Source of the DNA: Nemertoderma westbladi
Lineage: Eukaryota; Animalia; Xenacoelomorpha
Length of the DNA: 64,000 nt
NCBI GenBank assembly: GCA_032718475.1
Contig: JAUCBJ010000852.1
Coordinates: 18,907 to 82,906, forward strand
Direction of reading: 5' to 3'
Shown: piece after piece, positions 508 through 53,936 of the stretch
Layout: every line of letters starts with the position of its first letter
Numbering within the stretch: position 1 is the stretch's first letter
Notes under the pieces: model-generated
The model's input: the letters and a program-made list of their open reading frames with translations, nothing else
Databases searched by the model: none
What the model was told of the DNA's origin: nothing
Position numbers and translations under genes: made by a program

Positions 508-2488
508 TTAACAATCATCCAGATGGGCAATAGCACGTCTGCAGTCTATATAATATTGAAGTCCATAATCCCTACAGACTATTGTAGGATCTGGAACAGT
601 ATTACTCAATATTGTGAGCAAAGCACTGTCCCCTGCGGTGTCTATGGCATCATCTACATCAACATAAGAAACATCTTCGTCTGTGACTGGTCCCTCCCAA
701 TCTATACCGTAACTATGTATTTCATGCACGTTAAGCGATTCGTTAATGGGCCCTGTTGATCGAATATTGTCTCGAATACAACTGTTTGTAAAAATTCGAT
801 TTGGTGACCAATTATTCTCTGTGCGAATTGGATGGGCATTCCATCCGCAAGAAAATTCATATAGTGATCTGTTCAGTCGCGGTATAAATATATAATGTAG
901 TATAACTAAATCAGAGTGGTTATCAAAATTAAGTAATGAGTTTTGCTCTAAGAAGTAAAATAAATTGTAGTATAAATGACATACTACTCTAAATACATCA
1001 CGCCATAGCCGCTCTATACGCTGGTTATGGGTGCTCCGGCCAGCAATATAGCTTCCTCTATCTGTTCCTTGGTATTCGATCATCCAATAAGCGACTCGGC
1101 GATTTTCGCCACCTTTGTCACCACGAACTCTTGATGGAACTCCAAACAAATTGATTGCTTCGATGAAGGACGTAAACACAGTCTCTGCACGGTTATTTGA
1201 ACTGGCTCGTAGATATACTATCGACCGAGAGTATCCATCAACTCCTCCATGAATAATAATACCCCATCTGTATAACAATTAAAATATAAAATAAATATAA
1301 TCTAAGACCAATATAAATAAATACTGTATGTATAGTTATGAACAGTAAAACACTACTGTATATATAATACAGTAATATACCGGTAGCTTAATTGGTGGAT
1401 GTCTATTAAGTGAAGTTCCGTGTTCAAATCCCACTCGCCACCATTTTGCAAAGGGATTTTCACTATCCAAACTGAAAATCTGTATCATCAATAATTATTG
1501 TTTATTGTATAAGATATTTAGGATTGGGCCTAATTTAAATGCTTACAAAAAAGCAAACCAACCTTATCAAACTGTGATGTCCATCTATGTGCCACAGAGA
1601 ATTTGCCCCAGGAACAAAGTATTTCCTTCGGGTGACAAGGGCGCCCCATCGTTGAGAAGATAAAACAGGGTCAAGTTCAGTTAGAATTCTGTGAACTCTA
1701 TTCATCTGTACTTTAATTCCCTTCGCCTTTAGGATTCCATACACCAACTTACAACCGGCGTGTGTATATTGTCCATGTATTTCAACAATTACTGATTTTA
1801 ATTCCTCATCTGTCATATCTGTGTACTCCCCGGCAGCTTGTATATCAAATTCGGTGACCCTCCTTGTTATAGTAGACCTACTCACCCCAAAGATATTTGA
1901 AATATCCACCCAAGTAAAGCCCATTTCTCGCAGGTTTACTAATAATTCTTTAGATATATCATAAGACGGCCGCCCAGAACTTCTACTCGAAACACTGCCA
2001 CCTGATGGCGAACTCAAGGTATTTACAGTTACCGCTACTGGTACACTAAGTCTCATAGGAGATGTGCAGCACGGGGATAAATTCATATCATCCGGAGCAA
2101 TGGCAAGAAACCAACGCTTCCAACTCAGTAAGTCTGTTAGGAGTTGTGGTAAACATCTGAATGGGTTGATACCGGTATCACTAAAATTACGTAATATAAT
2201 TTCTATTGTAGTAATGAAGTGTTCCAATGATCGCACAAGAAAATCGTATTGGAAGTCGTCTTGTGATAGTGAATTGTCCCTCGCAAAGCGTAAACATGAC
2301 TCAAGAACTTTCTCTAAATCTCGCAGAAAGAGCTCAGATCCACTAACTACAGACGCCGGCAGGTCATCCATATCATATGTCATATATCTCTGTATCTTTC
2401 TAACAGTCTGTTCACGGTCAGACAGTAGGCCTAATTTAGTTATAGTAATACTGCTGTACACTGGTACAACATCCCACTTTATATCCAA
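508..2488 (-). CDS. Two-exon DDE integrase-core transposase (IS3EU/IS481-like eukaryotic family); exons 2488-1563 and 1267-508, phase-2 intron 1562-1268
   Basis: Joining AG|GTTGGT (1563/1562) to TACAG|A (1268/1267) gives ...LWHIDGHHSLIRWGIIIHGGVDGYSR...RGDKGGEN...STHNQRIERLWRDV, the typical integrase-core motif set; N-terminal HTH (GFTWVDISNIFGVSRSTITRR). Start codon uncertain. Confidence 0.85.
1380..1460 (+). mobile_element. tRNA-derived SINE head fragment inside the transposase intron
   Basis: A-box-like TAGCTTAATTGG (1384) and B-box-like GTTCAAATCC (1422), without a complete cloverleaf. Confidence 0.5.
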
Positions 2489-6588: not shown

Positions 6589-6643
6589 AGTTTAATTTAT
6601 TTTATAACCTTATATATCGCATCATATATTAAAGAATATCCTT

Positions 6644-7350
6644 GTGCCATCCAGACTGAGGTGTACAAGGGAACTTTCACCTTGTGATTTTCTAGGAGTT
6701 CATAAATGTGACAGAGCGGCATGTGTACCCTGTAAAGTATTATTACCTTTAAAATATGTCAGCTCAACAACTAACAAAAGCCACAGGGTTTATATAAAGA
6801 ATGATTTATCTTGCAATGCTAAAAATGTTATTTATGTGGTGACTTGCCTTAAATGTAACTTATTTGGTATCGGTTCAACAAAGGACTTAAAGCCTAGGAT
6901 AGCCAACTACAAGACAAAGATAATTAATGACAAACCATCGACTGCCATCGACAGACATTTTACTACCTCGGGTCATTCTTACAATGCACACTTCAGAATT
7001 ACACCATTTGATTGTCTACCGATCTCAGCAAACAAAAAACTGAACCGAGGGAGAATTAAAGAGGGAGAATGGCAGTGCCGGTTGGAAACTTTACAACCAA
7101 TGGGTTTGAATGTTCTCAACGAGGCAGTGATCAATAACTTTGGACTTGATGTTTTCAATCCTAAAGAATTATAAAGATTAAAGATTCACAGATTTAAAAA
7201 ACTCATTAGTTGCTAGGGTAGTATTATTATTTGTAGTGCATTAATTCTAGAATATCGTTTATTTGAAAACGATAGAGAGAGCTATCGAAAGCTAATAATA
7301 AAAAAATAAATTTTTAGTGATTGATCATATAAGTTGTCACTTTTTGAAAT
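6644..7350 (+). mobile_element. 5'-truncated Penelope-like retroelement: GIY-YIG endonuclease C-terminus (6644-7174) and 3' pLTR region
   Basis: CxxC linker, NVIYVVTCLKCNLFGIGSTKDLKPRI...LETLQPMGLN; followed by a hammerhead-like motif and a (TA)n run. Confidence 0.8.
7259..7298 (+). ncRNA. Degenerate minimal hammerhead ribozyme-like motif
   Basis: TTAT-TTGAAAA-CGATAG agagag CTATCG-AAAGCTA-ATAA: stem II and GAAA intact; the CUGANGA box is altered to UUGAAAA. Confidence 0.4.
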
Positions 7351-7489: not shown

Positions 7490-8530
7490 CTACATGTAAT
7501 ACATATCAGAAAAAAACCAGTATATTTGATGTGCTATATACAGTCTGTATCTACAGATGGCAGTCATGTGCGTGTGTGGTAACCCATAAAACATTTCACA
7601 TGTATGGGTGGGTACCTGACATTTCCCGCAGATCATTCGCGTATATTTCTTGCAGTGTTTGCACACTCGGATGAGTCCCGCATTACTAACAAGATCGTGA
7701 CCAACACCATCATAGCGAATGTCTGGTATCACAGACCTAACTGGGCAGGGTTCCAACCTCTGATCTCAGCATTGCCTGCACCACAACTCGATAGAAATCT
7801 ATTTGCTTCACCTTAGAATCGGCATGACTGATTTGGAACAATCGCCAGGATGCTACCATCACCACATTGAAGGCATGTATAAGAAGAGGAAAATACCACT
7901 TCTTCCCATGTATGGATGGGCGAACGTTGGATAATGCCCTGTCTACCAAGTCCACCCCTCCCATATGTTTATTGTACAGCTTGACAGCCAATGGCTGACT
8001 TATGGCAGTCTTGCTCCAGCGGTTTACATGCTGGATAGGTTCTACACCAACAGCGTTACTCCCCATCGTTACGACCGAGTTGTCATTCCACCGAATAAAC
8101 TCAATACCATCACCTGTACGATAGTCGAAAGTACCACGTTCTCTCTTCTTCATAACATCGACAGCTAGGAGGGGACAGCCCCCAATCCTATTTACTCGAA
8201 CTGTGCCTGTAGCACTAAAACCAATTGTTGACAACTTTTGAAGTAGGTCAACAGACGTAAAAAAGTTGTCGAAGAAAACATGGTGCCTGCTGGGGTTCTC
8301 ACAAACCTTCAGACCACCTAGCACTACCTGCATTCCCAGTGGATATTCATTCCGGTTTGACCACTGGAGATCTTCCTTCATATTATATGTGGACACAGTA
8401 TGGATATGGAGCTGCCTGTCATCCAGCATTTAAACCCAAACCTTACAGGTTTATTACGAATGAATTGCTTGCATGAATGATGGCCATAATATGGGACCAT
8501 ACATTCATCGACACTAAGGTTGGTATGCAC
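7490..8530 (-). pseudogene. piggyBac transposase fragment (catalytic core plus Cys-rich C-terminus), frameshifted
   Basis: LSVDECMVPYYGHHSCKQFIRNKPVRFGFK (8520-8430), FFDNFFTS, YNKHMGGVDLVD, KKWY, then CKHC...CGKC in a different frame. Confidence 0.85.
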
Positions 8531-11480: not shown

Positions 11481-12372
11481 CTGGGTGCTTTGAGGGCCTT
11501 TGTGAGTATATTGAGGGGGTTGGGGTCTATCAGGCAGGTTGTTGTCATTGAGGTCACGTAATACACTATAGTAATTCCTGTCAGCTAGCTCAATTGTTTC
11601 TTTTGATGAGCGGACATTAGCATTGGTGGGGTTGCAATGGGCCTTGTCCTTGGATTGGCGGTGGTTAGTAGGGTTGCAGTGCGTCACATCTTCTGATGGA
11701 TGGTTGCTGTTGGAGTTACTGTGTCTCTGTCCCCACATTGTATGAGTTTGGGGTTTGGGTACATTCGTCTATTACTAGCCAAGTATTACTGAGTTCGTTG
11801 TCGTCTAGGAAGGGAGTTGTGGTCACTGTCGATTTGTTGCTGACATCTTTCACTGTGGTCTGATATTGCTGCATTTTGCGTTCGATCACGAGACGTGCAT
11901 GCCGCTCGTGCTGTAATTCGTCCGCTAGATTTTGGAAGCGTGTAGTTAGGTTGGCATAGTTAGCCTCAGATTTGCAAAGTCTTGTCTGTAAAACAGATAT
12001 AGTATTTATCATATCATTCCTGAGGTGGTCAAAGTCTGCTTTAAGGTCAGTGGTAGTGTGTGGTGTATTGTCGTGTTTTAGCCTTTTTTTGCAGTTTTCC
12101 GTAAAGTTGTTTTCATATTTGCATTTGTAGAGCTCAATAATGTCGTGTGCCATTTCAAGTGATGATGATCGTGACCTGAGATGCAGAGAGGCGCTGTTCA
12201 CGGGAGACATAAGAAATTTAGTGCTGTCAAACAGGTGTTCTCTTAGTTTATGTTGAATATCTATTGCAAACTTTGCTACTATGGCCCCAACATCCTTTCT
12301 TGGTCGCATAGCAGCGTCATGCAGGATAGAGTAGGGCTTAATAAGGGACAGTGGTGTGTTGTCTTCATCCAC
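11469..12372 (-). pseudogene. Probable LINE ORF1-like coiled-coil protein fragment, frameshifted
   Basis: 218-aa ORF with a heptad-rich stretch (DFDHLRNDMINTISVLQTRL...KMQQYQ), continuing into a low-complexity frame with NYYSVL; no diagnostic domain. Confidence 0.35.
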
Positions 12373-13351
12373 ATTCGCTACACTGTGTGTATTGTATGGG
12401 GGGGATAATGTCTGATTATATATCTGAGGGATATCACTGGGTGCTGTATTATGGAATTCATCTATTATTTTTACCGATTTCAGAGTACTTTCCAGCCATG
12501 AGCGTAGTTTTACACTATTAGTGTGTACTGATTGTAATCATGTAGAATCGGTAGTCTTGGCAAGGGCAAAAGTCTTCATCATTTATCAAATGTTTGTTAA
12601 CGAAATTAATCAATAATAGATTGAACAACGTTTCAATTGTAACAAATTTTTCTATATTATGGGAAATTGTGTCAAAATTTAGTTCCCAAAATATTAACTG
12701 GGGAGGTTTTCTTCTAAGTTTCTCCATTACATTTCTAATTTCGTCTCTAGCCGTTTTATTTAGACAACTACCAGAAACCGATGTTATTCAATTAACCTCA
12801 CGTCGTGATATTAAATTTAGATAGAACTCTTTCTAGATAAAATATATAGAAAATTCTAGAAAAAATAGAAATATCTATCATTTTTTTTTCAAAAAATACT
12901 AGCTATTAAAAAAACACACTAGCTACCATAAAAAAATATCTATTAAGGTTCTAGAACATTCACCAATATCCAAAAAAACACTATAAAGCAATATTATATT
13001 TTTTAATTTTCAAAAAATAGTAGCTAGTAAAAAAAACGAGCTACCATTAAAAAATTTATACTAAGGTTCTAGAACAATCACCAATGTTCTACAACATAAT
13101 AAAATGGCATAAAACACAATAAATTTACACAAATGTGCTGTATACATACATACTGTACTAGTACTGGTTATACATAATACTTGTACCAATATCACAAAAT
13201 TACTAGCTACCATCTTGCTGTCAAAAGGTCAAAAGGTCAAATATTTATTTCTAGAACATAAAACCACTTGGCACAGTAATAACTACTGAAATAATACAAT
13301 AGTATTCAAGTGCATGGTGGTGTTCTTATTTGATAAATAATAAACATTGTT

Positions 13352-15594
13352 AGCAATAGCAAGAGGTTCAGATACAATGTTTTCCAAACTAGCCAATAAG
13401 GCCTTAGGTCCAATAGTTAATAACCTGTACGCTTATGTAGGCGCACCTCCTGTTCGAACCGGGACCTGTACGCGGTATGTTTTAAATACCGCGGTGCGAA
13501 CTCTAAAATATCATGGGACCAGCAACGATTCCCCTTATACCAGGACGACGGACTGGAAAGAGTTAAATCTCAATCACAACCTTATCAATTCTAAGGTAGA
13601 CCTAGACATTGTCCAGGGATGCGCCGCACTGTACCGAGAGGGACTAAAAACAGACCCCGACTCCCTGCTTGCGACCTGGGTGGATAAGTTAAGTATTCGG
13701 CGTGCTGATGAGCTCCAAAAGGGAAGAATGACATACTCCCCATTCTTAGACGTAAACATACCCGCTGCTGACGCATATCTTGAGACACATCAATTCCTCG
13801 AAAAGAACCTGGGGTACCCCATCGGTCCTAGCTATTTTGACCATATGCGTGCGACCTTAGCCGTATTATCGCTTCCCGTTGTATACTACCGAGTTAATAC
13901 AATCGGAGGATTTGTCCAGAAAGAATTCTCTCAAGAGCAATTGTGGAACCGTATTACAACACTATCTACCTTTATAAAGCAACTTGAAAGAGGTCAAAAA
14001 GACGCACGCTCTATCGCGTTGCCATGCATAATATTTCGCTTCTTCCAGTACGCAATTGAAGAACTGTCAAAGATTACCTTAGAAAAGCACGAGGGAAGTG
14101 CGTTGAAGGCCGGGACTGTCGACAAGGTGTCTAAAATCTATGGCAAAGTCACTGAGATCTCTGACAATCTATGCATGGTCATCACAGGTGATAACTCCAA
14201 GTGGAACGAGTGCGTCTCAATTCCCGCTTTAGTCCGGATTCTAATGACAATTTTTAAGAATTGCGACACACATAATTACCAGACACTAACAACTATCTGC
14301 TTGATGCTCGAAAATCTGTTTGAATCCAAGAGCCTGAGATTGGGGAAGGGGTTATCGGTAAAGGACAAAAATGGGGTGTTAACCAATGGCGCAATTACCA
14401 GGGAATTAATCAGGCTTTGTCCGGATGTACACAATATCGTAGATGGCTACCAGGACTTCATAAACGAAGAAGAGCAAACAATTTGGGTCCCCCCAGGGAT
14501 GGTGATGGGGATGCTCAATACTGGGTCTACGCTAGTGGGAATGGTCTGTTCACTTCCTGAATACCTTATGAAGATCCAAAGTAGTGACGACTTCGTTTCA
14601 ATATTGAAAGCAGAGTTAGTCGTAAAGGAGTACGCCAGGGAATGGATTAAAGCAAACCAACCGGACGATTGGCAAGAAATCTTGGAGAACCACCGGAAAG
14701 TTAAGTTCTTTTCAATGTGTCTAGCTGCTACTGCTACAAGCCTTTTTGAAAGAGCCTTAAGACCAATGATTCAATACCCAAAACCTACAGTATCGAGAAA
14801 GGGGATTACTGGGAATATAATTCTGTCCATAATTTAGGTAAATACCTGGGAAACTTCTCGACAGAGTTACCAACTCTACTCCCATTGGGTAAAAACCCAT
14901 CTGTGGATTTGGAATGCCTCGCTAAATCACTAAGAGAGAGTTGTCAGAAGGGGGCATTGGACCCTTGTTTGGTCCCAATCGCACTAGGTATTGTCGAGCG
15001 TAACTACAAACTAGATTACTTTGCCAATCCCAACCCGAGGGGCGTTGCTCACATGCGCGGCCCGGTTCTGAGTAAGCTATACGAAGAGACACCCAATCTG
15101 AGTGTTAATTCTACTCATCCTTGCCACGGTGGTCCCTTATTATGGTCCACTAGTACTCTTACTTGCAATCACTGGGCCTAGGATGGCATCTAGGCATATA
15201 CCCCGACTTATATATACAAAGGGTTATGAACCCCATCAATCCCACCAATTTTACTTCGGATAATAAAGACCTAGTATTGTTTTCGAGCAGTAAACGCAGC
15301 GAGGTTGAAGCTGAATTCTCTCCAGGATGCATGTCAATAGCTTTCAGGGACAATCGTAAATGTTTGAACACTACCCAAGGAAACCTTAGGATCAACCGTG
15401 CACGCAAATATAGAAGGTTCAACACCGGACTGGGGAAATGCGCAAGGGACGTAGCTATGTTTAACATGCAAAGTACAGCTTCAGTAGCCAAGACACTGTA
15501 TAATAGATACAGCGCTGTAAATGAACTGTCTGAGTTGACACCCGATGAGGGGAACGCATTAAATGAGTTAAAACAGATTTGTGATACATTGTGA
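13352..15594 (+). pseudogene. PB1: Endogenous viral element: orthomyxovirus-like (Articulavirales) PB1 RNA-dependent RNA polymerase, near full length, frameshifts at ~14765 and ~15175
   Basis: ATG at 13377. YVGAPPVRTGT (cf. influenza YTGDPPYSHGT), KGRMTY, motif F KQLERGQKDARSIALP, A TGDNSKWNE, B PGMVMGMLN, C IQSSDDF; after the frameshift KTY...EYNS...GNFSTELP (cf. KSY...EFTS...ANFSMELP), HGGP, RVMNPINP, RDNRKCLNT. Confidence 0.93.
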
Positions 15595-15602
15595 ATATAT
15601 AT

Positions 15603-18600
15603 TAGGGTGCATCATTTGCCCCACGATTTTCAAAACTTTTATAGATTGTCTTGTACCTCGGCAAAATAGTTCCTTTTAATGAAAAAATCAAGTATGTGAA
15701 ATATTACCTCAAAATATTTATGTCTACCTGGTCCACCAACTTCATTAATAATGCCCCCTGTAGCGACACTTCGATGCGATTATAAGCTATAAGCAATTTT
15801 TGAGATAGCGAATATTTGGCACCCCTGTGTTAATGACTGAATGATATTAACTCAATAGATCCACAATTGTCGACTTAGTGGGGGTAGACACATTCAATTT
15901 AAGGATCGAGTGATCAGTTCTTGAGATATTACATAAGATGAATAGACTCTCACTCTCACAATGCAACATAACTACAGCAATGAAATGGGTATTCATTAAA
16001 AGTAAAATGTAACATACTTATAATAGATCAAACAATCAAGAATTATGCTCTTTCAAACCACAATGGACCATTTAGATCCTTGAGTCCTAATCAATCAATT
16101 TTTACTTCATCTATTTATTGTGATACTTTAAAAATTTGAGTCAACTTGCTATATAATAATATAGTATTATATAATCAATGTTATGTTCATCATACTATTT
16201 CGATTATGATAAAAGTAAACTCAAAATTTCGGTTACAGAGACTACATTACTAAATCAACAACTGAATCAACAACTAGCTAATATATTCACTAATATATAG
16301 AAGCTGACAATAAAATGTTCATAATAATTGGATGAGTTCATGACAGTCCGTCTCTGAATCATTTCTTTCCATACTGCTTCTTCCGCTTTCTTAAGTTCGG
16401 CATGGATTTACGATCCCTCTCCACTACTTGTAGTACATTCTGGAAATGTTCTTCTTTCTTTGCAGCCTCCAAAAAGTCGGAACTCAATTTGACACCCCTC
16501 TCTGAAATATCATTTAAATTATTGATGGCCTTTATATTTTCTAATGAGTTTTTATATACCTCCAGGGTCGACCAGTCATTCACATTGGTATTCAAGAAAG
16601 AGCTGTCTAGTTTCAAGAGATGAAATGTATACCATGAGTCTGGACCAACAAGATCTGGTAGTGTGGTTGATGGAGAAATGTCTGGAAATTTGGGTTTCCC
16701 ATAACTTGTTCCAAATCTATTCTGTGGAGCATTGGGTAGCTCTTTAGGTTTGATGTTCAACAGTGCATCAGCAAGCGCACGTTTCTCATGATTAGTCAGT
16801 TTGCTACTGAACAGAGCCAATGGTATATATTCTTCAGTGAGATACCAGAGGTGTCTATTCAGTGCTTTCAATGCACTACTTGACACCTGTGGGTTAAGTT
16901 CTGCATAAGAAACAATATTGCGATAAAGAATGAGATCATTGATAGGAGCATCAATCGTATGTCCACAGGAAAACCACCAGCTGCTATAAATCAAAGTGAC
17001 AAAGTTAGTAAATTCACGAAGCTTAGTCATCTGGTATTTGGATGCAATGGTTCCCTTTGGTAGAAGATTGATCTGTTTTTCCATCAAACACATCTTCAGA
17101 GCATACAGTAACTTGCTCATCCATCTAGCTTTGTGCATTGCACCAGGATATTTGAACTTGTATGGGTGTTCCTGATCCTTTCCAAGAAAAACTTCACAAA
17201 GTTTAGCAAATTCAGCATAGTCTTCCCTACAATACTCTGCTGTTGATTGTGATTGTAAGAGGACATCATTTTTCCAGTTATTAACAATAGTTGTGGTTTC
17301 TAAATTCTCAGACACAGAAAGACCAGACAATTGGTGAACATCATAATCACTTTCAAGCATCTGGAAATGTTTTTGAAATCGAACAAAAATCATGATCTCA
17401 GGAGATTGGGATACCTCAATGTATAAATCAGTGAACACCTGTGTTAATATGATCTCCCCTATGTGGTGGCGACACCCCGACCATAGAAGAGCTCGATCTA
17501 GTCTTTGCTGAACTGATATACAAGCTGCAGAAATGTGGCCAGTGTTACTTGATGTTGTATCAAAAACGAGGTTGACAATGGATTCCGTACACCCCCATTT
17601 ATCTAACAGTTCACCTGTTTTCTCAGATATGATAGAACCAGTGGTTTTATCTGACCCTGGTTTGTATGCTGGTACACCAAGCAGTTTTGTATCTGTACTT
17701 GTACCAACATAGACAGCAAGTCGCTCTTCTGCATCATACTTGTTTTGTAATGTTGGTAGGAGCTTGTTATCCCAATGAAGAGAAGCAAATTTCGGAGGAA
17801 CCCACTCACAACGTGTTGTTGTAGCAATCTCTTCATTCACTGTCCTACGGGCTTTATCAGCTGTCGCATATGATGTTGAGATTTTTGTCTTATCACCCCC
17901 TGAAACTTCAACAATAGCTTCAGTAAATGCAGCCTGCTGAGCTGGAGTCATTTTGATCCTTGTGGCTAAGGACACAATTTGTGGCGATTTCAGAATATCA
18001 TGAGGGATAAAAGCTTGTGTTCCAGTGAATTTGGTCCTGTGATGACTGCAATAAGTGGTAGTACTACTGCTTGGTTGGTCCGTGGCAGTACATCCCTCAT
18101 TGCTGCTTTCATCTGTGGAAGTGTCAATGTCTAGTAATGCACTCTGAGGATTATCTGCAATAGCCTGTGCATTTTTTAACCTTTTTTCACATATTTGATG
18201 GCGATCTTTAATTCGTTTCACTTTCGCAGCAAGGAGCTTATCAAAACTTCCCATGGTTGCCTGCCTGTCACCCATCATTGACTTCAGAAACTCTAAATCA
18301 TCTTTATTTTTAATTGTTTCTAAGGCATCTGTTGTCCACAGTTGGAAAGTTTTATCAAGTGTAAATTGTGCTGCCTGCAATCTTTCAATTATGGTTGTAT
18401 TGTTTCGACGTGATAATGGTATTTGCCGAAGTTTGGCATTTTCATCCATTAGTTTTATTATTTTCTGAGCCGCTTTCTTCTGGGTCATCATTGGAATATT
18501 AGCTTTGGAATAAAATACATTTATTTGACTTAAAACTGCCATAGCTGAATCCCACTTAAATGGTGTTGTTATTTTTTTTGACATGCCTTCTTGAATATGA

Positions 18601-19593
18601 TAGAGCATGCACCGCAATACTTGACGACATGTTGGTAAACGGCATCCTGTAATAACCTTGTCATTTATTGTTATCCCCTCTCCTAGACCATATATTTTAT
18701 TTGATTCGCGTGTCTGTGTAGTTGATTTCGAGCTTGTTGCCATGTTTTAAAAACTAAATACTAAATATATAAGGCATAATTATAGTGTCCCAATATAATT
18801 TATTATCAAATTATACTTATGAGAATAATCAAAGTTTACATAGCCTATATCATTAGACACTGCTGGTACTGTCTGACTGTATTTTTAAAGTTTAATAAGC
18901 CAAATAAGACATACATAGACAAGGTAAGTGTGTACTGGAAACCAGTAAAATACTTATATCTTCTATACACTATTAGTTACCAAATAGGCCTAATATGTGA
19001 TCGTGACTGCCAGTGCAGCCAGAATTAGTCTACCAGGTGGACTGGACTGGACTGGATAGGTACTCATACATACATCAAGACAGAGTGACAAATTCAACAA
19101 AGCGATATTACCTCAAACTGCATTAATAATAGGCTCATTCAAACTGCAATGTGCAAGATGGTGGGTATAGGCGCCTTTAAAACAACATTAAAGTGATTAG
19201 ATCTTGATATATTGCATGCGCAGCTACTATATTGCTTTTGCACGAAGCAATGCCCTTATGTGAAGGTATGCTGGTATACCCATTTCAACAATATATCGAG
19301 AACTAGACATACTCTTGTTTTGAATGTTTTTACCCCCACTAAATCGACCATTGCTGTTCTAATAAGTTACTATCACTAATGCAAGGATACCAAAAGTTGG
19401 TTATATCGAAAATTGCTAATTTGTAATGTCGCGTCAAATGTCGCTGAAGCGGTAATTACAAATGAAGTTGGTGGACCAGGTAAATATTATTTATTTGCCA
19501 AAATACTTCACATGCATTATTTTCCCATCAAAATGAACTATTTATGAGAGGTACAAGACAATCCATGATGTAAGGGGCAAATGATGCACCCTA
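15603..19593 (-). mobile_element. hATm-like DNA transposon, apparently complete, with long imperfect TIRs
   Basis: TAGGGTGCATCATTTGCCCC...GGGGCAAATGATGCACCCTA termini; subterminal homology continues for ~300 bp (e.g. ACCTGGTCCACCAACTTCATT / AATGAAGTTGGTGGACCAGGT); flanks ATATATAT / ATAATTAT form an imperfect TSD. Confidence 0.85.
16359..18743 (-). CDS. Intact 794-aa hATm-type transposase
   Basis: Uninterrupted ORF with LHWDNK, EERLAV, FDTTSSNTG, CRHH (CxxH), ARWMSK and NDISERGVK motifs. Confidence 0.85.
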   Translation of the reverse strand: MATSSKSTTQTRESNKIYGLGEGITINDKVITGCRLPTCRQVLRCMLYHIQEGMSKKITTPFKWDSAMAVLSQINVFYSKANIPMMTQKKAAQKIIKLMDENAKLRQIPLSRRNNTTIIERLQAAQFTLDKTFQLWTTDALETIKNKDDLEFLKSMMGDRQATMGSFDKLLAAKVKRIKDRHQICEKRLKNAQAIADNPQSALLDIDTSTDESSNEGCTATDQPSSSTTTYCSHHRTKFTGTQAFIPHDILKSPQIVSLATRIKMTPAQQAAFTEAIVEVSGGDKTKISTSYATADKARRTVNEEIATTTRCEWVPPKFASLHWDNKLLPTLQNKYDAEERLAVYVGTSTDTKLLGVPAYKPGSDKTTGSIISEKTGELLDKWGCTESIVNLVFDTTSSNTGHISAACISVQQRLDRALLWSGCRHHIGEIILTQVFTDLYIEVSQSPEIMIFVRFQKHFQMLESDYDVHQLSGLSVSENLETTTIVNNWKNDVLLQSQSTAEYCREDYAEFAKLCEVFLGKDQEHPYKFKYPGAMHKARWMSKLLYALKMCLMEKQINLLPKGTIASKYQMTKLREFTNFVTLIYSSWWFSCGHTIDAPINDLILYRNIVSYAELNPQVSSSALKALNRHLWYLTEEYIPLALFSSKLTNHEKRALADALLNIKPKELPNAPQNRFGTSYGKPKFPDISPSTTLPDLVGPDSWYTFHLLKLDSSFLNTNVNDWSTLEVYKNSLENIKAINNLNDISERGVKLSSDFLEAAKKEEHFQNVLQVVERDRKSMPNLRKRKKQYGKK

Positions 19594-22500
19594 ATAATTA
19601 TATGTGTACATAATTATATGTGTATATCGTTATATGTGTACATCGTTCTATGTGTACATCGTTCTATGTGTACATCGTTCTATGTGTACATCGTTCTATG
19701 TGTATATCGTTCTATGTGTATGTCAATCTATGTGTATATCGTTCTATGTGTACATCGTTATGTGTACATAATTATATGTGTATATCGTTATATGTGTACA
19801 TCGTTCTATGTGTACATCGTTCTATGTGTACATCGTTCTATGTGTATATCGTTCTATGTGTAAGTCATTCTATGTGTACATCGTTCTATGTGTATATCGT
19901 TCTATGTGTATGTCATTACATGTGTATATCGTTCTATGTGTATGTCGTTCTATGTGTATGTCATTCTATGTGTATATCGTTCTATGTGTATGTCATTATA
20001 TGTGTATATCATTCTATGTGTACATCGTTATGTGTACATCGTTCTATGTGTACATCGTCATATGTGTATGTCGTTCTATGTGTACATCATTATATGTGTA
20101 CATCGTTCTATGTGTACATCGTTCTATGTGTACATCGTTCTATGTGTACATCGTCATATGTGTATGTCGTTCTATGTGTACATCGTACTATGTGTATGTC
20201 ATTCTATATGTAAATCGTTCTATGTGTACATCGTTCTATGTGTACATCGTTATGTGTACATCGTTCTATGTGCATGTCGTTCTATGTGTACATTGTTCTA
20301 TGAGTACATCGTTGTGTACATCGTTCTATGTGTATGTCATTATATGTGTATATCGTTCTATGTGTACATCGTCCTATGTGAACATCGCTATGTGTACATC
20401 GTTCTATGTGTACATCGTTCTATGTGTACATCGTTCTATGTGTACATCGTCATGTGTACATCGTTCTATGTGTATGTCATTATATGTGTACATCGTTCTA
20501 TGTGTACATCGTCCTATGTGAACATCGCTATGTGTACATCATTATGTGTACATCATTCTATGTGTACATCGTTCTATGTGTACATCGTTCTATGTGTACA
20601 TCGTTCTATGTGTACATTGTCATATGTGTATGTCGTTCTATGTGCACATCGTTCTATGTGTATGTCGTTCTATGTGTACATCGTTCTATGTGTACATCGT
20701 TATGTGTACATCATTCTATGTGTACATCGTTCTATGTGTACATCGTTCTATGTGTACATCGTCATATGTGTATGTCGTTCTATGTGTACATCGTTCTATG
20801 TGTACATCGTTCTATGTGAACATCGCTATGTGTACATCGTTCTATGTGTACATCGTTATGTGTACATCGTTCTATGTGTACATCGTTATGTGTACATCGT
20901 TCTATGTGCACATCGTTCTATGTGTACATCGTCATATGTGTATGTCGTTCTATGTGTACATCGTCATATGTGTACATCGTTCTATGTGTACATCGTACTA
21001 TGTGTATGTCGTTCTATGTGTACATCGTTCTATGTGTACATCGCTATGTGTACATCGTTATGTGTGTACATCGTTATGTCTACATCGTTCTATGTGTACA
21101 TCGTTCTATGTGTACATCGTTATGTGTACATCGTTCTATGTGTACATCGTTATGTGTACATCATTCTATGTGTACATCGTTCTATGTGTACATTGTTCTA
21201 TGTGTACATCGTTCTATGTGTAAGTCATTCTATGTGTACATCGTTCTATGTGTATATCGTTCTATGTGTATGTCATTACATGTGTATATCGTTCTATGTG
21301 TATGTCGTTCTATGTGTATGTCATTCTATGTGTATATCGTTCTATGTGTATGTCATTATATGTGTATATCATTCTATGTGTACATCGTTATGTGTACATC
21401 GTTCTATGTGTACATCGTCATATGTGTATGTCGTTCTATGTGTACATCATTATATGTGTACATCGTTCTATGTGTACATCGTTCTATGTGTACATCGTTC
21501 TATGTGTACATCGTTCTATGTGTACATCGTCATATGTGTATGTCGTTCTATGTGTACATCGTACTATGTGTATGTCATTCTATGTGTAAATCATTCTATG
21601 TGTACATCGTTATGTGTACATCGTTCTATGTGTACATCGTTATGTGTACATCATTCTATGTGCATGTCGTTCTATGTGTACATCGTTCTATGTGTACATC
21701 GTTGTGTACATCGTTCTATGTGTATGTCATTATATGTGTATATCGTTCTATGTGTACATCGTCCTATGTGAACATCGCTATGTGTACATCGTGCTATGTG
21801 TACATCGTTCTATGTGTACATCATTCTATGTGTACATCGTTCTATGTGTACATCGTCATGTGTACATCGTTCTATGTGTATGTCATTATATGTGTACATC
21901 GTTCTATGTGTACATCGTCCTATGTGAACATCGCTATGTGTACATCGTTATGTGTACATCATTCTATGTGTACATCGTTCTATGTGTACATCGTTCTATG
22001 TGTACATCGTTCTATGTGTACATCGTCATATGTGTATGTCGTTCTATGTGTACATCGTTCTATGTGTATGTCGTTCTATGTGTACATCGTTCTATGTGTA
22101 CATCGTTATGTGTACATCATTCTATGTGTACATCGTTATATGTGTACATCGTTCTATGTGTACATCGTCATATGTGTATGTCGTTCTATGTGTACATCGT
22201 TCTATGTGTACATCGTTCTATGTGAACGTCGCTATGTGTACATCGTTCTATGTGTACATCGTTATGTGTACATCGTTCTATGTGTACATCGTTATGTGTA
22301 CATCGTTCTATGTGCACATCGTTCTATGTGTACATCGTCATATGTGTATGTCGTTCTATGTGTACATCGTCATATGTGTACATCGTTCTATGTGTACATC
22401 GTACTATGTGTATGTTGTTCTATGTGTACATCGTTCTATGTGTACATCCCTATGTGTACATCGTTATGTGTGTACATCGTTATGTGTACATCATTCTATG

Positions 22501-25500
22501 TGTACATCGTTCTATGTGTACATCGTTATGTGTACATCGTTCTATGTGTACATCGTTATGTGTACATCATTCTATGTGTACATCGTTCTATGTGTACATC
22601 GTTCTATGTGTACATCGTCATATGTGTATGTCGTTCTATGTGTACATCGTTCTATGTATACATCGTTCTATGTGAACATCGCTATGTGTACATCGTTCTA
22701 TGTGTACATCGTTATGTGTACATCGTTCTATGTGTACATCGTTATGTGTACATCGTTCTATGTGTACATCGTTATGTGTACATCGTTCTATGTGTACATC
22801 GTTCTATGTGTACATCGTCATATGTGTATGTCATTATATGTGTACATCGTTCTATGTGTACATCGTCCTATGTGTACATCGTTCTATGTGTATATCATTC
22901 TATGTGTAAGTCATTCTATGTGTACATCGTTCTATGTGTATGTCATTATATGTGTATATCGTTCTATGTGTACATCGTCCTATGTGAACATCGTTCTATG
23001 TGTACATCGTTCTATGTGTACATCGTTCTATGTGTACATCGTTCTATGTGTATATCATTCTATGTGTATGTCAGTATATGTGTATATCGTTCTATGTGAA
23101 TGTCAATCTATGTGTATATCGTTCTATGTGTACATCGTTATGTGTACATAATTATATGTGTATATCGTTATATGTGTACATCGTTCTATGTGTACATCGT
23201 TCTATGTGTACATCGTTCTATGTGTATATCGTTCTATGTGTAAGTCATTCTATGTGTACATCGTTCTATGTGTATATCATTATGTGTACATCATTCTATG
23301 TGTACATCGTTATGTGTACATCGTTCTATGTGTACATCGTTCTATGTGTACATCGTTCTATCGTTCTATGTGTATATTGTTCTATGTGTATGTCAGTATA
23401 TGTGTATATCGTTCTATGTGTACATCGTTATGTGTACATAATTATATGTGTACATAATTATATGTGTATATCGTTATATGTGTACATCGTTCTATGTGTA
23501 CATCGTTCTATGTGTACATCGTTCTATGTGTACATCGTTCTATGTGTATATCGTTCTATGTGTATGTCAATCTATGTGTATATCGTTCTATGTGTACATC
23601 GTTATGTGTACATAATTATATGTGTATATCGTTATATGTGTACATCGTTCTATGTGTACATCGTTCTATGTGTACATCGTTCTATGTGTATATCGTTCTA
23701 TGTGTAAGTCATTCTATGTGTACATCGTTCTATGTGTATATCGTTCTATGTGTATGTCATTACATGTGTATATCGTTCTATGTGTATGTCGTTCTATGTG
23801 TATGTCATTCTATGTGTATATCGTTCTATGTGTATGTCATTATATGTGTATATCATTCTATGTGTACATCGTTATGTGTACATCGTTCTATGTGTACATC
23901 GTCATATGTGTATGTCGTTCTATGTGTACATCATTATATGTGTACATCGTTCTATGTGTACATCGTTCTATGTGTACATCGTTCTATGTGTACATCGTCA
24001 TATGTGTATGTCGTTCTATGTGTACATCGTACTATGTGTATGTCATTCTATATGTAAATCGTTCTATGTGTACATCGTTCTATGTGTACATCGTTATGTG
24101 TACATCGTTCTATGTGCATGTCGTTCTATGTGTACATTGTTCTATGAGTACATCGTTGTGTACATCGTTCTATGTGTATGTCATTATATGTGTATATCGT
24201 TCTATGTGTACATCGTCCTATGTGAACATCGCTATGTGTACATCGTTCTATGTGTACATCGTTCTATGTGTACATCGTTCTATGTGTACATCGTCATGTG
24301 TACATCGTTCTATGTGTATGTCATTATATGTGTACATCGTTCTATGTGTACATCGTCCTATGTGAACATCGCTATGTGTACATCATTATGTGTACATCAT
24401 TCTATGTGTACATCGTTCTATGTGTACATCGTTCTATGTGTACATCGTTCTATGTGTACATCGTCATATGTGTATGTCGTTCTATGTGCACATCGTTCTA
24501 TGTGTATGTCGTTCTATGTGTACATCGTTCTATGTGTACATCGTTATGTGTACATCATTCTATGTGTACATCGTTCTATGTGTACATCGTTCTATGTGTA
24601 CATCGTCATATGTGTATGTCGTTCTATGTGTACATCGTTCTATGTGTACATCGTTCTATGTGAACATCGCTATGTGTACATCGTTCTATGTGTACATCGT
24701 TATGTGTACATCGTTCTATGTGTACATCGTTATGTGTACATCGTTCTATGTGCACATCGTTCTATGTGTACATCGTCATATGTGTATGTCGTTCTATGTG
24801 TACATCGTCATATGTGTACATCGTTCTATGTGTACATCGTACTATGTGTATGTCGTTCTATGTGTACATCGTTCTATGTGTACATCGCTATGTGTACATC
24901 GTTATGTGTGTACATCGTTATGTCTACATCGTTCTATGTGTACATCGTTCTATGTGTACATCGTTATGTGTACATCGTTCTATGTGTACATCGTTATGTG
25001 TACATCATTCTATGTGTACATCGTTCTATGTGTACATCGTTCTATATGTACATCGTCATATGTGTATGTCGTTCTATGTGTACATCGTTCTATGTGTACA
25101 TCGTTCTATGTGAACATCGCTATGTGTACATCGTTCTATGTGTACATCGTTCTATGTGTACATCGTTATGTGTACATCGTTCTATGTGTACATCGTTATG
25201 TGTACATCGTTCTATGTGTACATCGTTCTATGTGTACATCGTCATATGTGTATGTCGTTCTATGTGTACATCGTCATATGTGTACATCGTTCTATGTGTA
25301 CATCGTACTATGTGTATGTCGTTCTATGTGTACATCGTTCTATGTGTACATCGCTATGTGTACATCGTTATGTGTGTACATGTTCTATGTGTACATCGTT
25401 ATGTGTACATCGTTCTATGTGTACATCGTTCTATGTGTATGTCATTATATGTGTACATCGTTCTATGTGTACATCGTTATGTGTACATCGTTCTATGTGT

Positions 25501-26743
25501 ACATCGTTATGTGTACATCGTTCTATGTGTACATCGTTCTATGTGTACATCGTTATGTGTACATCGTTCTATGTGTACATCGTTATGTGTACATCGTTCT
25601 ATGTGTACATCGTTCTATGTGTATGTCGTTCTATGTGTACATCGTTCTATGTGTACATCGTTATGTGTACATCATTCTATGTGTACATCGTTCTATGTGT
25701 ACATCGTTCTATGTGTACATGGTCATATGTGTATGTCGTTCTATGTGTACATCGTTCTATGTGTACATCGTTCTATGTGAACATCGCTATGTGTACATCG
25801 TTCTATGTGTACATCGTTATGTGTACATCGTTCTATGTGTACATCGTTATGTGTACATCGTTCTATGTGTACATCGTTCTATGTGTACATCGTCATATGT
25901 GTATGTCGTTCTATCTGTACATCGTCATATGTGTACATCGTTCTATGTGTACATCGTACTATGTGTATGTCGTTCTATGTGTACATCGTTCTATGTGTAC
26001 ATCGCTATGTGTACATCGTTATGTGTGTACATGTTCTATGTGTACATCGTTATGTGTACATCGTTTTATGTGTACATCGTTCTATGTGTATGTCATTATA
26101 TGTGTACATCGTTCTATGTGTACATCGTTATGTGTACATCGTTCTATGTGTACATCGTTATGTGTACATCGTTCTATGTGTACATCGTTCTATGTGTATG
26201 TCATTATATGTGTACATCGTTCTATGTGTACATCGCTATGTGTACATCGTTATGTGTGTACATGTTCTATGTGTACATCGTTATGTGTACATCGTTCTAT
26301 GTGTACATCGTTCTATGTGTACATCGTTATGTGTACATCGTTCTATGTGTACATCGTTATGTGTACATCGTTATGTGTACATCGTTCTATGTGTACATCG
26401 TTATGTGTACATCGTTCTATGTGTATGTCATTATATGTGTACATCGTTCTATGTGTACATCGCTATGTGTACATCGTTATGTGTGTACATGTTCTATGTG
26501 TACATCGTTATGTGTACATCGTTATGTGTACATCGTTCTATGTGTACATCGTTATGTGTACATCGTTCTATGTGTACATCGTTCTATGTGTATGTCATTA
26601 TATGTGTATATCGTTATATGTGTATATCGTTATATGTGTATATCGTTATATGTGTATATCGTTATATGTGTATATCGTTATATGTGTATATCGTTCTATT
26701 TGTACATCGTTATGTGTACATCGTTCTATGTACATCGTTATGC
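19594..26743. repeat. ~7.1-kb satellite of 16-bp (TATGTGTACATCGTTC) and 14-bp variant units with higher-order duplications
   Basis: Direct periodicity; identical translated blocks recur at a 3844-bp offset. Confidence 0.97.
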
Positions 26744-28473: not shown

Positions 28474-31181
28474 CCATCGATTTGGAAGTGCGACAAGGTG
28501 CCCAGCCATCGATATAAACACACCTGTTTGGAACTGCGACAAGGTGCCCAGCCATCGATATAAACTCACCTGTTTGGAACTGCGACAAGGCGCCCAGCCA
28601 TCGATATAAACTCACCTGTTTGGAACTGCGACAAGGTGCCAAACCATCGATATAAACTCACCTGTTTGGAACTGCGACAAGGTGCGCAGCCATCGATATA
28701 AACTCACCTGTTTGGAACTGCGACAAGGTGCCCAGCCATCGATATAAACTCACCTGTTTGGAACTGCGACAAGGTGCCCAGCCATCGATATAAACTCACC
28801 TGTTTGGAACTGCGACAAGGTGCCCAGCCATCGATATAAACTCACCTGTTTGGAACTGCGACAAGGTGCGCAGCCATCGATATAAACTCACCTGTTTGGA
28901 ACTGCGACAAGGTGCCCAGCCATCGATATAAACTCACCTGTTTGGAACTGCGACAAGGTGCCCAGCCATCGATATAAACTCACCTGTTTGGAACTGCGAC
29001 AAGGTGCCCAGCCATCGATATAAACTCACCTGTTTGGAACTGCGACAAGGTGCCCAGCCATCGATATAAACTCACCTGTTTGGAACTGCGACAAGGTGCC
29101 CAGCCATTGATATAAACTCACCTGTTTGGAACTGCGACAAGGTGCCCAGCCATCGATATAAACTCACCTGTTTGGAACTGCGACAAGGTGCCCAGCCATC
29201 GATATAAACTCACCTGTTTGGAACTGCGACAATGTGCCCAGCCATCGATATAAACTCACCTGTTTGGAACTGCGACAAGGTGCGCAGCCATCGATATAAA
29301 CTCACCTGTTTGGAACTGCGACAAGGTGCCCAGCCATCGATATAAACTCACCTGTTTGGAACTGCGACAAGGTGCCCAGCCATCGATATAAACTCACCTG
29401 TTTGGAACTGCGACAAGGTGCCCAGCCATCGATATAAACTCACCTGTTTGGAACTGCGACAAGGTGCCCAGCCATCGATATAAACTCACCTGTTTGGAAC
29501 TGCGACAAGGCGCCCAGCCATCGATATAAACTCACCTGTTTGGAACTGCGACAAGGTGCCCAGCCATCGATATAAACTCAGCTGTTTGGAACTGCGACAA
29601 GGCGCCCAGCCATCGATATAAACTCACCTGTTTGGAACTGCGACAAGGCGCCCAGCCATCGATATAAACTCACCTGTTTGGAACTGCGACAAGGTGCCCA
29701 GCCATCGATATAAACTCACCTGTTTGGAACTGCGACAAGGCGCCCAGCCATCGATATAAACTCACCTGTTTGGAACTGCGACAAGGTGCGCAGCCATCGA
29801 TATAAACTCACCTGTTTGGAACTGCGACAAGGTGCCAAACCATCGATATAAACTCACCTGTTTGGAACTGCGACAAGGTGCGCAGCCATCGATATAAACT
29901 CACCTGTTTGGAACTGCGACAAGGTGCCCAGCCATCCATATAAACTCACCTGTTTGGAACTGCGACAAGGTGCCCAGCCATCAATATAAACTCACCTGTT
30001 TGGAACTGCGACAAGGCGCCCAGCCATCGATATAAACTCACCTGTTTGGAACTGCGACAAGGTGCCAAACCATCGATATAAACTCACCTGTTTGGAACTG
30101 CGACAAGGTGCGCAGCCATCGATATAAACTCACCTGTTTGGAACTGCGACAAGGTGCCCAGCCATCGATATAAACTCACCTGTTTGGAACTGCGACAAGG
30201 TGCCCAGCCATCGATATAAACTCACCTGTTTGGAACTGCGACATGGTGCCCAGCCATCGATATAAACTCACCTGTTTGGAACTGCGACAAGGTGCCCAGC
30301 CATCGATATAAACTCACCTGTTTGGAACTGCGACAAGGTGCCCAGCCATCGATATAAACTCACCTGTTTGGAACTGCGACAAGGTGCCCAGCCATCGATA
30401 TAAGGTCACCTGTTTGGAACTGCGACAAGGTGCCCAGCCATCGATATAAACTCACCTGTTTGGAACTGCGACAAGGTGCCCAGCCATCGATATAAACTCA
30501 CCTGTTTGGAACTGCGACAAGGTGCCCAGCCATCGATATAAACTCACCTGTTTGGAACTGCGACAAGGTGCCCAGCCATCGATATAAGCTCACCTGTTTG
30601 GAACTGCGACAAGGTGCCCAGCCATCGATATAAACTCACCTGTTTGGAACTGCGACAAGGCGCCCAGCCATCGATATAAACTTACCTGTTTGGAACTGCG
30701 ACAAGGTGCACAGCCATCGATATAAACTAACCTGTTTGGAACTGCGACAAGGTGCCAAACCATCGATATAAACTCACCTGTTTGGAACTGCGACAAGGTG
30801 CCCAGCCATCGATATAAACTCACCTGTTTGGAACTGCGACAAGGTGCCCAGCCATCGATATAAACTCACCTGTTTGGAACTGCGACATGGTGCCCAGCCA
30901 TCGATATAAACTCACCTGATTGGAACTGCGACAAGGTGCCCAGCCATCGATATAAACTCACCTGTTTGGAACTGCGACAAGGTGCCCAGCCATCGATATA
31001 AACTCACCTGTTTGGAACTGCGACATGGTGCCCAGCCATCGATATAAACTCACCTGATTGGAACTGCGACAAGGTGCCCAGCCATCGATATAAACTCACC
31101 TGTTTGGAACTGCGACAAGGTGCCCAGCCATCGATATAAACTCACCTGTTTGGAACTGCGACAAGGTGCCAAACCATCGAT
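28474..31181 (-). repeat. 46-bp tandem array (~59 copies): last 36 nt of the ATAD2 Walker B exon plus donor GTGAGTTTAT
   Basis: Minus-strand unit ATCGATGGCTGGGCACCTTGTCGCAGTTCCAAACAG|GTGAGTTTAT. Confidence 0.97.
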
Positions 31182-31629: not shown

Positions 31630-35095
<3,466 letters not shown>

Positions 35096-41205: not shown

Positions 41206-41916
41206 TATTAGTATGGCCTGTGACCCCACTTTTTGATGAAAAAAACGAACTAGATAGTCTATTTAGATAGAGTCTAACTAAACTGAAAAAAACTAACTAG
41301 ATAGAACGATCTATTGCGATGTTCCAGAATGTTATTTGACAGTTGCCATGGTTACCATTTTGGTTGGAATCACTAATAAAATATTCCCTTGGAGTTGCAA
41401 AGACGAAAGTGGAACGTATTCGCACATCAGTGTAAAACACTGTACAAAGGGTAAAGGAAGATTCGTGAACCCTGTAAATGGCGCTCATACCCAGAGGATA
41501 GAAGGGATGTGGGGACATGCCAAGCTAGGCTTGATGAGGAACAAGAGAGGAATCAATAAGAACCTGTTACAGAATCATCTCGCTGAATTTTGGTGGCGAA
41601 ATTACAACAGGGAGGCCCCATTCAGCAAACTAATAACACTAATAAACAATAGCGAATTATAGAAATCTGTTTAATTCAGTTCAAAAACAAAAGACTAATC
41701 AATTTACATTGTTATATTCATTAAATAACATATTAGATTAACCTTCAATAAATCATTATTTACAACACTTGGTTACCATAGCAACACAAGAAAAATGTTC
41801 CAGAATGTAGAACTTGAGTGGGGCAAACATAATACCAACATATGTAGCTAGTATATCATAAATTACTAGCTAGTTTTTTTCATCAAAAAGTGAGGTCACA
41901 GGCCATACTAATACCA
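41206..41916 (+). mobile_element. Internally deleted Merlin (IS1595/ISXO2-like) element with transposase C-terminal fragment (41336-41662)
   Basis: TIRs TATTAGTATGGCCTGTGACCCCACTTTTTGATG / CATCAAAAAGTGAGGTCACAGGCCATACTAATACC; FVNPVNGAHTQRIEGMWGHAK...HLAEFWWR. Confidence 0.85.
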
Positions 41917-42947
41917 TACAGAACAACTAACTATAACGATAGCATTCCAAAACATTTTTTAAAATGTTAGCTAGGGCTATAGCTATAGATATAACTAGGC
42001 CTATAGGCTATAGACTATAGGCGGCTATAGCTATAGATATAAATCACTAGCTATAATTGTAAATTATTACTTGAGTACATAAAATTACTAGATATATGTT
42101 AATTATACAAAAAAGTGTTAAAAAAAACAAAACAATACAATTTTTTTTTAAATGTTCTAGAATAAAAAATGATATGTTCTAGAACATTATTTAACAAAAA
42201 AATAATTCGAAATATCCTAGAATACTTCACACTAACATTAAAAAGTAGTAGCTAGTAAACTAAACACATTTTAGAGCAAACTGAAAATGTGGCCGTACGG
42301 AACTCTAGCCGATATTTATATTATTAGTTATAGACACAACAATGTAATGTTAATTGTTTGAGATTATTTGTATTCGTTTGTAGCGGCACTGTAGGGGTTG
42401 TCTTACCTCGTATTATCGGCCTACTGTATTTACGAATGTTATTAGGGCTACAAGTTTTGGACCTTATTCTGTTTAAACCCAATTCTGGGCTAGATTTAGC
42501 GATTATTGGGTGAAATTAGCTATTTATAACCCATGTTCTGGAACATTACTAGAAATTTTTTTATGGTAGCAAGTGTTTTTTTTATTAGCTAGTATTTTTT
42601 GAAATTATAATAAAATTTATTTTTATCGGATTTTTGATATGGCGAAGTAGTACCGTAGGTACCCATGTCGTATAAGTGCATAATAATGGTACCCTGGCCT
42701 TTAATATCTCATGGAATCCGTATATTTTTACTTTTCTCCTATTCTGTCAGTTTTTCGGATAATTTATCTTCACAGTTAATGCACTCCTCACACAATGCTC
42801 TCTCTGGCGTCGTATAATTATCTTATTTTTCTCCGTAACTGTCTTTCTTTTCATTGCCTTAATTTGACTTTTGTGCATTTCGCACCTCTAATTTTTTTAT
42901 AATTTTTTTAATTACTAGCAATTTTAAATTTGAAAAATAATTAGCGG

Positions 42948-50800: not shown

Positions 50801-51027
50801 TGCTACTCGATGGAGACGGAACTCTATCTACACTTAGTACAGTTTGCTACTCGAAGGAGACGGAACTCTATCTACACTTAGTACAGTTTGCTACTCGATG
50901 GAGACGGAACTCTATCTACACTTAGTACAGTTTGCTACTCGAAGGAGACGGAACTCTATCTACACTTAGTACAGTTTGCTACTCGATGGAGACGGAACTC
51001 TATCTACACTTAGTACAGTTTGCTACT
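44875..51027. repeat. 44-bp satellite (GACGGAACTCTATCTACACTTAGTACAGTTTGCTRCTCGAWGGA), ~140 copies
   Basis: Direct periodicity with two biallelic positions. Confidence 0.97.
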
Positions 51028-53802: not shown

Positions 53803-53936
53803 TCTCTGTTTAACTTCTATAGGTGTAGGTCGGGCGTACTCTACAGGTGCCGCTAAGATATCATCGACAACCCCACCACCTTCGCCAATCCCATTTAGTA
53901 CAACTCCGTCTTGAATGTTAACCGTGGGCTTCTTTT
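53742..53936 (-). CDS. Probable N-terminal exon of the ATAD2-like gene (195 nt, phase 1 to 1)
   Basis: TTTCAG|AA...GATG|GTTAGT; EKKPTVNIQDGVVLNGIGEGGGVVDDILAAPVEYARPTPIEVKQRKVDRDIYRGVISTEAGRVSD; phase fits both the 54077 donor and the 35735 acceptor. Confidence 0.65.

Follow-up and report, generated by a model that had tools for sequence, protein, structure and literature searches.

Analysis of a 64,000-nucleotide window of Nemertoderma westbladi DNA (the whole stretch studied here) reveals a near-complete PB1 segment at positions 13352-15594 on the forward strand, spread over three successive reading frames. In our reading, to which we assign a probability of about 0.88, this element derives from the PB1 segment of an articulavirus akin to Wenling orthomyxo-like virus 1 and is a near-complete but interrupted DNA copy, which was likely made by a host retroelement, likely sits in the germ line and is now likely drifting with no function as a protein. 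Elements of this sort have been described before; the present member and the lineage behind it are new.

The open frames of the element span 13344-14837 (frame +3), 14750-15181 (frame +2) and 15154-15594 (frame +1). The first piece (coding part 13377-14750), which comprises the N-terminus, motifs F, A, B and C and a long insert between motifs C and D, matches positions 17-449 of the Pfam Flu_PB1 profile (E = 8e-51). The second piece (14750-15181), with motifs D and E and the thumb region, matches positions 470-599 (E = 6.5e-12), and the third (15154-15594), the C-terminal part up to the stop, matches positions 613-714 with an E-value of 4e-5 that taken alone lies under the curated cut-off. The three pieces are colinear and together account for 665 of the 732 profile positions, and tblastn with the closest named relative returns the identical three pieces in the same order. 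The frame changes from +3 to +2 at a first break (14740-14765) and from +2 to +1 at a second (15160-15175); these are the only interruptions of the window copy, which has no internal stops. Motifs F, A, B, C, D and E of the polymerase are all present and in order: PPVRTG lies at 13446, motif F at 13971, A at 14187, B at about 14496 and the SDD of motif C at 14583, followed by motif D (NDSIPK) at 14765, motif E (EYNS) at 14813, NPINP at 15229 and RDNRKCL at 15346. All of this bears out an earlier note on the same DNA, which had described a near-complete PB1 with only two frameshifts and landmarks colinear from the PP..GT motif to the C-terminal motifs. Because the alignment of the third piece reaches residue 712 of the 718-residue relative P0003, the stop at 15594 can be taken as the expected natural end of the protein.

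Among sequences of solved structures, the best matches are PB1 chains of 710 residues from the 8z85/8p0b series, whose entries bear the title Thogoto virus polymerase, followed by influenza C. The predicted structure of the first piece, obtained from a 36-row alignment, has a pLDDT of 78 and resembles influenza B PB1 (TM 0.76, E = 3e-25), and the top viral model in a fold search with this prediction is that of Wenling orthomyxo-like virus 1. As the model was itself built on an alignment of PB1 relatives, the fold match confirms the assignment and adds nothing independent to it.

Spacing between the polymerase motifs departs from that of influenza viruses in the way the earlier note had claimed. 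The B-C spacer is 29 residues long in the element, as against 38-39 in four of four influenza-clade rows, and the C-D spacer (14592-14764, from the motif alignment; pLDDT below 50 in the model) is enlarged to about 60 residues, as against 32-33 in the influenza, isa-, quaranja- and thogoto-like rows measured. In the clade that includes Xinjiang sediment orthomyxo-like virus 1 as well as Wenling orthomyxo-like virus 1, the B-C spacer is 27-30 residues and the C-D spacer 32-46, a range below the roughly 60 of the element itself. The D/E motif, which had been called unusual, is indeed present. However, it is not peculiar to the element, since the Wenling virus has NDSINK..EYNS and the Xinjiang virus NDSHDK..EYNA in its place, and it is better regarded as a mark of the clade, whose members share the motifs RTG, FIKQxERGQ and NDS..K/EYN. 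Seven of the nine differences listed for the C-D insert in a diverged copy (82% identical, described below) fall at third codon positions, which indicates that the insert was viral coding sequence. A motif C-D spacer of 32 residues in the established genera could thus be about 60 in a living virus.

An exhaustive protein search returned 66 representatives at E <= 0.001, three of them at 1e-30; names were looked up for 30 of them, and one match, P0037, was dropped as a repeat-rich false match. The best matches are the Xinjiang virus (UMO75720.1, 33% identity) and the Wenling virus (AVM87616.1), the latter 29% identical over the first piece and 44% over the second. These two PB1 proteins came out on top in every search, fall in one clade with the element and share its short B-C spacer and D/E motifs. 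They differ from it in being just 29-33% identical over the first piece and 44-46% over the second, in having C-D spacers of 38 and 32 residues and in being derived from RNA, whereas the element is broken and lies in chromosomal DNA. IMG/VR gave no more than two segments of influenza C/D type and a single distant piece, none of 343 pattern matches in JGI metagenomes was confirmed, and a profile search of a 5.8-billion set, which added P0016 only and missed the Wenling virus, is insensitive here.

Trees were built on the first piece only, from rows that include no amnoonvirus and no known cnidenomovirus. In the first (LG+G4, 33 rows) the query, the Wenling and Xinjiang viruses and five unnamed rows occupy one side of a branch with 94/98 support, and in the second (C20 mixture, 19 rows, after removal of 14 long, partial or redundant rows) support for the clade is 98/98. 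In the latter tree the clade lies between the isaviruses and the influenza/thogoto/quaranja group, with its inner order unresolved. The influenza viruses, Thogotovirus, Quaranjavirus and Isavirus each form a branch of their own with the element outside, and the end branch of the element measures 1.1-1.3 changes per site. A PB1 tree of the kind proposed in the earlier note, run here on the first piece, places the element with the Wenling and Xinjiang viruses; to call its lineage undescribed, as that note did, overstates the case for a member of a 98/98 clade with two named viruses, though the identity to them is only about 33%.

The Wenling/Xinjiang clade likely equals the provisional genus 'Metamyxovirus' of Petrone et al. 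2023 (PMC10636315), an aquatic-host clade of uncertain position near the isa- and amnoonviruses; the membership of the Wenling virus is drawn from host lists and BLAST tables. The element's clade likewise falls between isaviruses and influenza/thogotoviruses, as does the PB1 of a whelk virus placed there by Waldron et al. (PMC6085071, in the part available; correction PMC7051039). It is possible, but in our judgement doubtful, that the element represents a separate genus-level lineage of articulaviruses outside 'Metamyxovirus'. The 33% identity to the nearest named proteins, the end branch of 1.1-1.3, its unresolved position within the clade and a C-D spacer length unique to the element would all fit such a separation, and the tree was computed without the defining 'Metamyxovirus' members (whelk, goby, hydra, squid and acoel sequences). 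Against this, the published clade members are mutually just 32-34% identical: in the available portion of Olendraite et al. 2023 (PMC10101049, Table S8), salmon louse and marine flatworm (acoel) sequences have Wenling virus 1 as their best match, the best match of the latter is the whelk virus, and Wenling virus 1 shows 32-34% identity to the salmon louse, acoel and whelk sequences. The shared RTG, FIKQxERGQ and NDS..K/EYN motifs also speak for membership. Two members of the provisional 'Cnidenomoviridae' rank lower by predicted fold (E = 1e-16 versus 1e-28); both closest relatives of the element are in the dataset of the 'Cnidenomoviridae' paper and are absent from its Fig. S2 list. A 50% relative of Wenling virus 1 has been reported from an Antarctic fish library (PMC12770441, PMC11282168, PMC12277240 and bioRxiv 10.1101/2024.12.15.628590, each as excerpted).

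Several further proteins were observed in these searches. Partial PB1 frames of the Wenling clade lie on ENA contigs of 14-172 kb (P0007/P0068/P0069, P0009, P0034 and P0040), and these four unnamed clade members are likely endogenous viral elements (EVEs), because the contigs are far longer than a segment. A thogoto-like PB1 on a 12 kb contig (P0005/P0067) may be another EVE. L003 (IMG/VR, 1370 bases), P0035, P0043 and P0065 are further unnamed PB1 proteins, which sit on very long branches and belong to none of the named genera.

The element was found in three of the six listed sequencing runs, from two studies, the runs being classed as DNA by guess; no RNA run was listed as carrying it, which says nothing either way about expression. 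In X1 one contig is identical to the window over 13313-15632. In X2 a contig covers 13304-15500 with 8 substitutions and 1 gap, and in X3, which bears the same sample code as X2 (S2), a contig covers 13402-15602 with 6 substitutions and 1 gap. Two other runs, X4 (tiny) and X5 (3 of 30 bins covered, flanks included), gave no alignment to the element but are too thin to bear on its presence. The left flank (12880-13351) is a high-copy, AT-rich host repeat with a summed contig depth of 1,300-35,000 in X1-X3, and it occurs a second time at 42533-42626. GC content is 44% in the element and 27% in this flank, while the CpG ratio is uninformative (0.80 in the element, 0.39-0.79 in the flanks). Contigs of X1 and X2, from two studies, run across the junction into the repeat for 39 and 48 letters, respectively, although X1 is possibly the window's own source, in which case the crossing comes from one independent sample. 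On the right, X1 enters the neighbouring transposon by 30 letters only, one letter below the threshold for counting a junction as bridged, while sample S2 has different DNA beyond 15602 and X2 additionally forks at 15500. The X3 contig was also seen to depart from the window before 13402, with an apparent short tandem expansion, and sample S2 carries more than one near-identical form of the element.

A chimeric assembly, or contamination with a copy of a live RNA virus, appears most improbable as the origin of the element. No listed contig runs across the whole 5 kb, and both flanks are repeats, which are prone to mis-joins. However, DNA contigs from two studies cross the identical left host-repeat junction, which argues that the element is not an assembly artefact, with the reservation that the runs were taken as DNA by guess, and the two breaks and a premature stop (see below) would not persist in a replicating virus. 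The endogenous nature claimed by the earlier note is thus upheld, and from the junction common to two samples we infer inheritance through the germ line.

Near-identical copies of the element differ by 0.27-0.36%. Both near-full S2 contigs show a length difference at the first break, so this break is not fixed in the species; no gap is listed at the second break in X1, X2 or X3, and that break is thus common to all three near-full contigs. The low divergence together with the single shared break suggests a young insertion. Of the description "fairly recent germline integration" in the earlier note, youth is thereby supported, while its age and germ-line passage stay at the level of probable readings. 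A premature stop lies within motif A of one S2 copy. With the first-break site excluded, the near-identical copies have 10 changed codons (3 synonymous, 6 missense, 1 stop), and the synonymous share of 3/10 agrees with a neutral expectation of 22% (P = 0.47), a comparison that rests on 10 codons. To judge from these codons, the pattern fits copies that are drifting neutrally, with no upkeep of the protein.

By analogy with non-retroviral EVEs of insects, the element might instead be kept for a job, namely feeding antiviral piRNA-like small RNAs from a transposon-rich locus, but we regard this as improbable. The surroundings would suit such a role, as transposon remains (integrase, piggyBac-type, GIY-YIG and TIR element) lie around the element and the same left junction has been retained in two studies; moreover, a dog whelk virus of a neighbouring clade has been reported to yield small RNAs of 26-30 nt (PMC6085071, in the part available). 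Upkeep at the protein level is nevertheless unlikely, given the second break in all three near-full copies, the one stop and the neutral substitutions, with which a role as RNA would be compatible. Drift without a protein function is the reading we retain.

The element preserves what appears to be one terminus of the viral segment. Position 13352, chosen as the start in the earlier note, is the exact first base of a segment-end motif whose 15 bases match the genomic 5' end of L001 and L002 at 14 of 15 positions. L001 is an influenza C PB1 segment (99.7% to P0006) and L002, 72% identical to influenza C, is likely influenza D. The chance of such a match is about 7e-6, allowing for 240 tries, and the motif is unique, since the rest of the window reaches at most 11/15 on either strand. 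The motif and leader occupy 13352-13376 (+), the ATG following 25 bases after the segment end, and the leader of L002 is equally long. Positions 13352-13366 resemble the plus-sense start of influenza C/D segments more weakly, at 8-9/15 ungapped (9/15 for L001). The two ends of influenza-type segments are reported to be quasi-complementary (bioRxiv 10.1101/2023.08.14.553164, as excerpted), and the virus perhaps had more symmetrical segment ends. The element thus resembles the PB1 segment of influenza C/D in its end motif, in its 25-base leader, as in L002, and in fold, and differs from it in a protein identity of 26%, a separate clade and other spacer lengths. It supplies a record of a segment-end motif for its clade.

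At the other end, the PB1 stop is followed by 8 AT-rich bases and then by a transposon, and a partner of the end motif was not found within 15300-16400. Neither a poly(A) tract nor a target-site duplication was found in the window, the longest word common to both flanks being 5 bases. As all these marks are lacking, an mRNA and a genome or antigenome are both admissible as templates. LINE-type marks, which are typical but not obligatory for non-retroviral EVEs, are absent from the window, and the right end abuts the transposon.

Further, diverged pieces of the element were detected in sample S2. X2 holds an 82% identical piece covering 14446-14714 (269 bases, no gap) and an 84% piece covering 13352-13540 at a depth of only 4.4, and both X2 and X3 hold an 89% piece covering 13350-13414. 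The alignments of the 84% and 89% pieces start at the end motif (13352 and 13350) and have other DNA in front. For the 82% piece 29 of 48 differences are listed, and the statistics rest on those: 25 of the 29 are at third positions, and synonymous changes account for 23 of 26 altered codons (P = 6e-9; contrast with the near-identical copies, P = 0.001). The divergence of the 82% piece would accordingly have arisen under selection in living viruses, and therefore related viruses likely integrated separately. It is very unlikely that the 82-89% pieces are old duplicates of a single insertion. The pieces are short (65-269 aligned bases), one has a depth of 4.4 and their loci were not seen, all of which leaves some room for duplication, but 25 of 29 listed third-position differences in a gapless 269 bases need selection in a living virus. 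Related but distinct viruses have thus likely entered the genome of the same species on other occasions, as far as these alignments can tell.

A plausible course of events would begin with the virus infecting germ-line or early embryonic cells, where the reverse transcriptase of a host retroelement may have copied segment-length RNA through to its first base. The cDNA would then have joined the AT-rich repeat in a region rich in transposons and satellites. The second break may have arisen early and the first later, on one lineage of copies, and in the haplotype of the window the DNA transposon would have come to lie 8 bases behind the stop, while related viruses may have entered on separate occasions as the 82-89% pieces. 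Retroelements and non-homologous joining are the established routes for integration of non-retroviral RNA viruses (PMC2987831, in the part available). The retroelement route is one we infer, since the 75 window frames scanned against Pfam include no reverse transcriptase; they include no other viral segment (PB2, PA or NP) either.

Orthomyxovirus EVEs have been reported in Ixodes (PMC2987831), Aedes (PMC10956553), the firefly Photinus (PMC6191289) and Chilo (PMC12810003), in the portions of these papers available. Like the present element, these arthropod EVEs are non-retroviral, consist of single segments and are often frameshifted. Unlike it, they are mostly quaranja-like and mostly derived from NP or GP, whereas the element is a near-full PB1 with an end motif from another clade. 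The view that such EVEs are uncommon and usually fragmentary, taken in the earlier note, holds in part: according to the available part of the Aedes study, there are 223 orthomyxovirus matches, 12 of them full-length (NP, GP or hypothetical protein 3), but only 6 of the 223 are PB1 and none of these is listed as full-length (PMC10956553). Our search, which was thin on subscription journals, found no literature on EVEs of the Wenling/'Metamyxovirus' clade; the name 'Metamyxovirus' itself turned up in a single paper, and PMC11521997 does not mention orthomyxoviruses.

Only a few metatranscriptomic contigs document the aquatic clade that lies between isaviruses and influenza/thogotoviruses; according to Petrone et al., who reported no EVE among their candidates, true hosts are unverifiable from such metagenomes (PMC10636315). 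With a copy in chromosomal DNA, infection of the carrier's lineage is proven, and these little-known viruses would be tied to a real host. We put at even odds the broader proposition that this species repeatedly captured PB1 of a genus-level articulavirus lineage with a C-D insert almost twice as long as the spacer of influenza, thogoto-, quaranja- and isaviruses and that, together with the unnamed pieces on 14-172 kb contigs, these copies form an unrecognised fossil record fixing the hosts of the 'Metamyxovirus' clade. If true, such a record would bear on a clade near the split between isaviruses and influenza viruses. The element also contributes a very long branch to the tree of the order, in a region where resolution is poor, and it calls for caution in virus discovery, because transcripts of such elements could pass for live viruses.

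Decayed transposons and satellites make up the remainder of the window. An rva_4 integrase element has left integrase-type frames at 508-2488 (-), the trace of a GIY-YIG frame lies at 6608-7174 (+) and a piece of a piggyBac-type transposase at 7737-8429 (-). A weak IS1595/Merlin-like transposase remnant was noticed at 41297-41662 (+). A coiled-coil frame of 273 codons at 11716-12537 (-) is multi-copy by depth and has no significant family; it may once have been the opening frame of a non-LTR element that has since decayed. Scans of 1-45000 for Rfam families and of the window for tRNAs were negative. Tandem arrays extend over much of 19601-64000. Six large and highly homogeneous satellite arrays stand out, at 19601-26739, 28481-31181, 31741-35095, 44875-51024, 51445-53812 and 55411-64000, with unrelated units of 16, 46, 32, 44, 76 and 40 bases, respectively, and matches of 85-100%.

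The right neighbour of the element is a TIR DNA transposon (15603-19593, -), whose termini presumably mark it as similar to hATm-type elements. Its uninterrupted frame of 795 codons has no significant Pfam match (best E = 0.09), yet the protein has 203 relatives at E <= 1e-50, the best of which are 52-53% identical. Those relatives that bear names come from fish, and look-alikes in the Atlas are mostly arthropod, a pattern in keeping with an animal host. A clean insertion of this transposon behind 15602 is not supported, since the S2 flank is absent from the window and the 8-mers flanking the transposon match at only 6 of 8 positions. A diverged sister family of the same transposon was found in all three runs.
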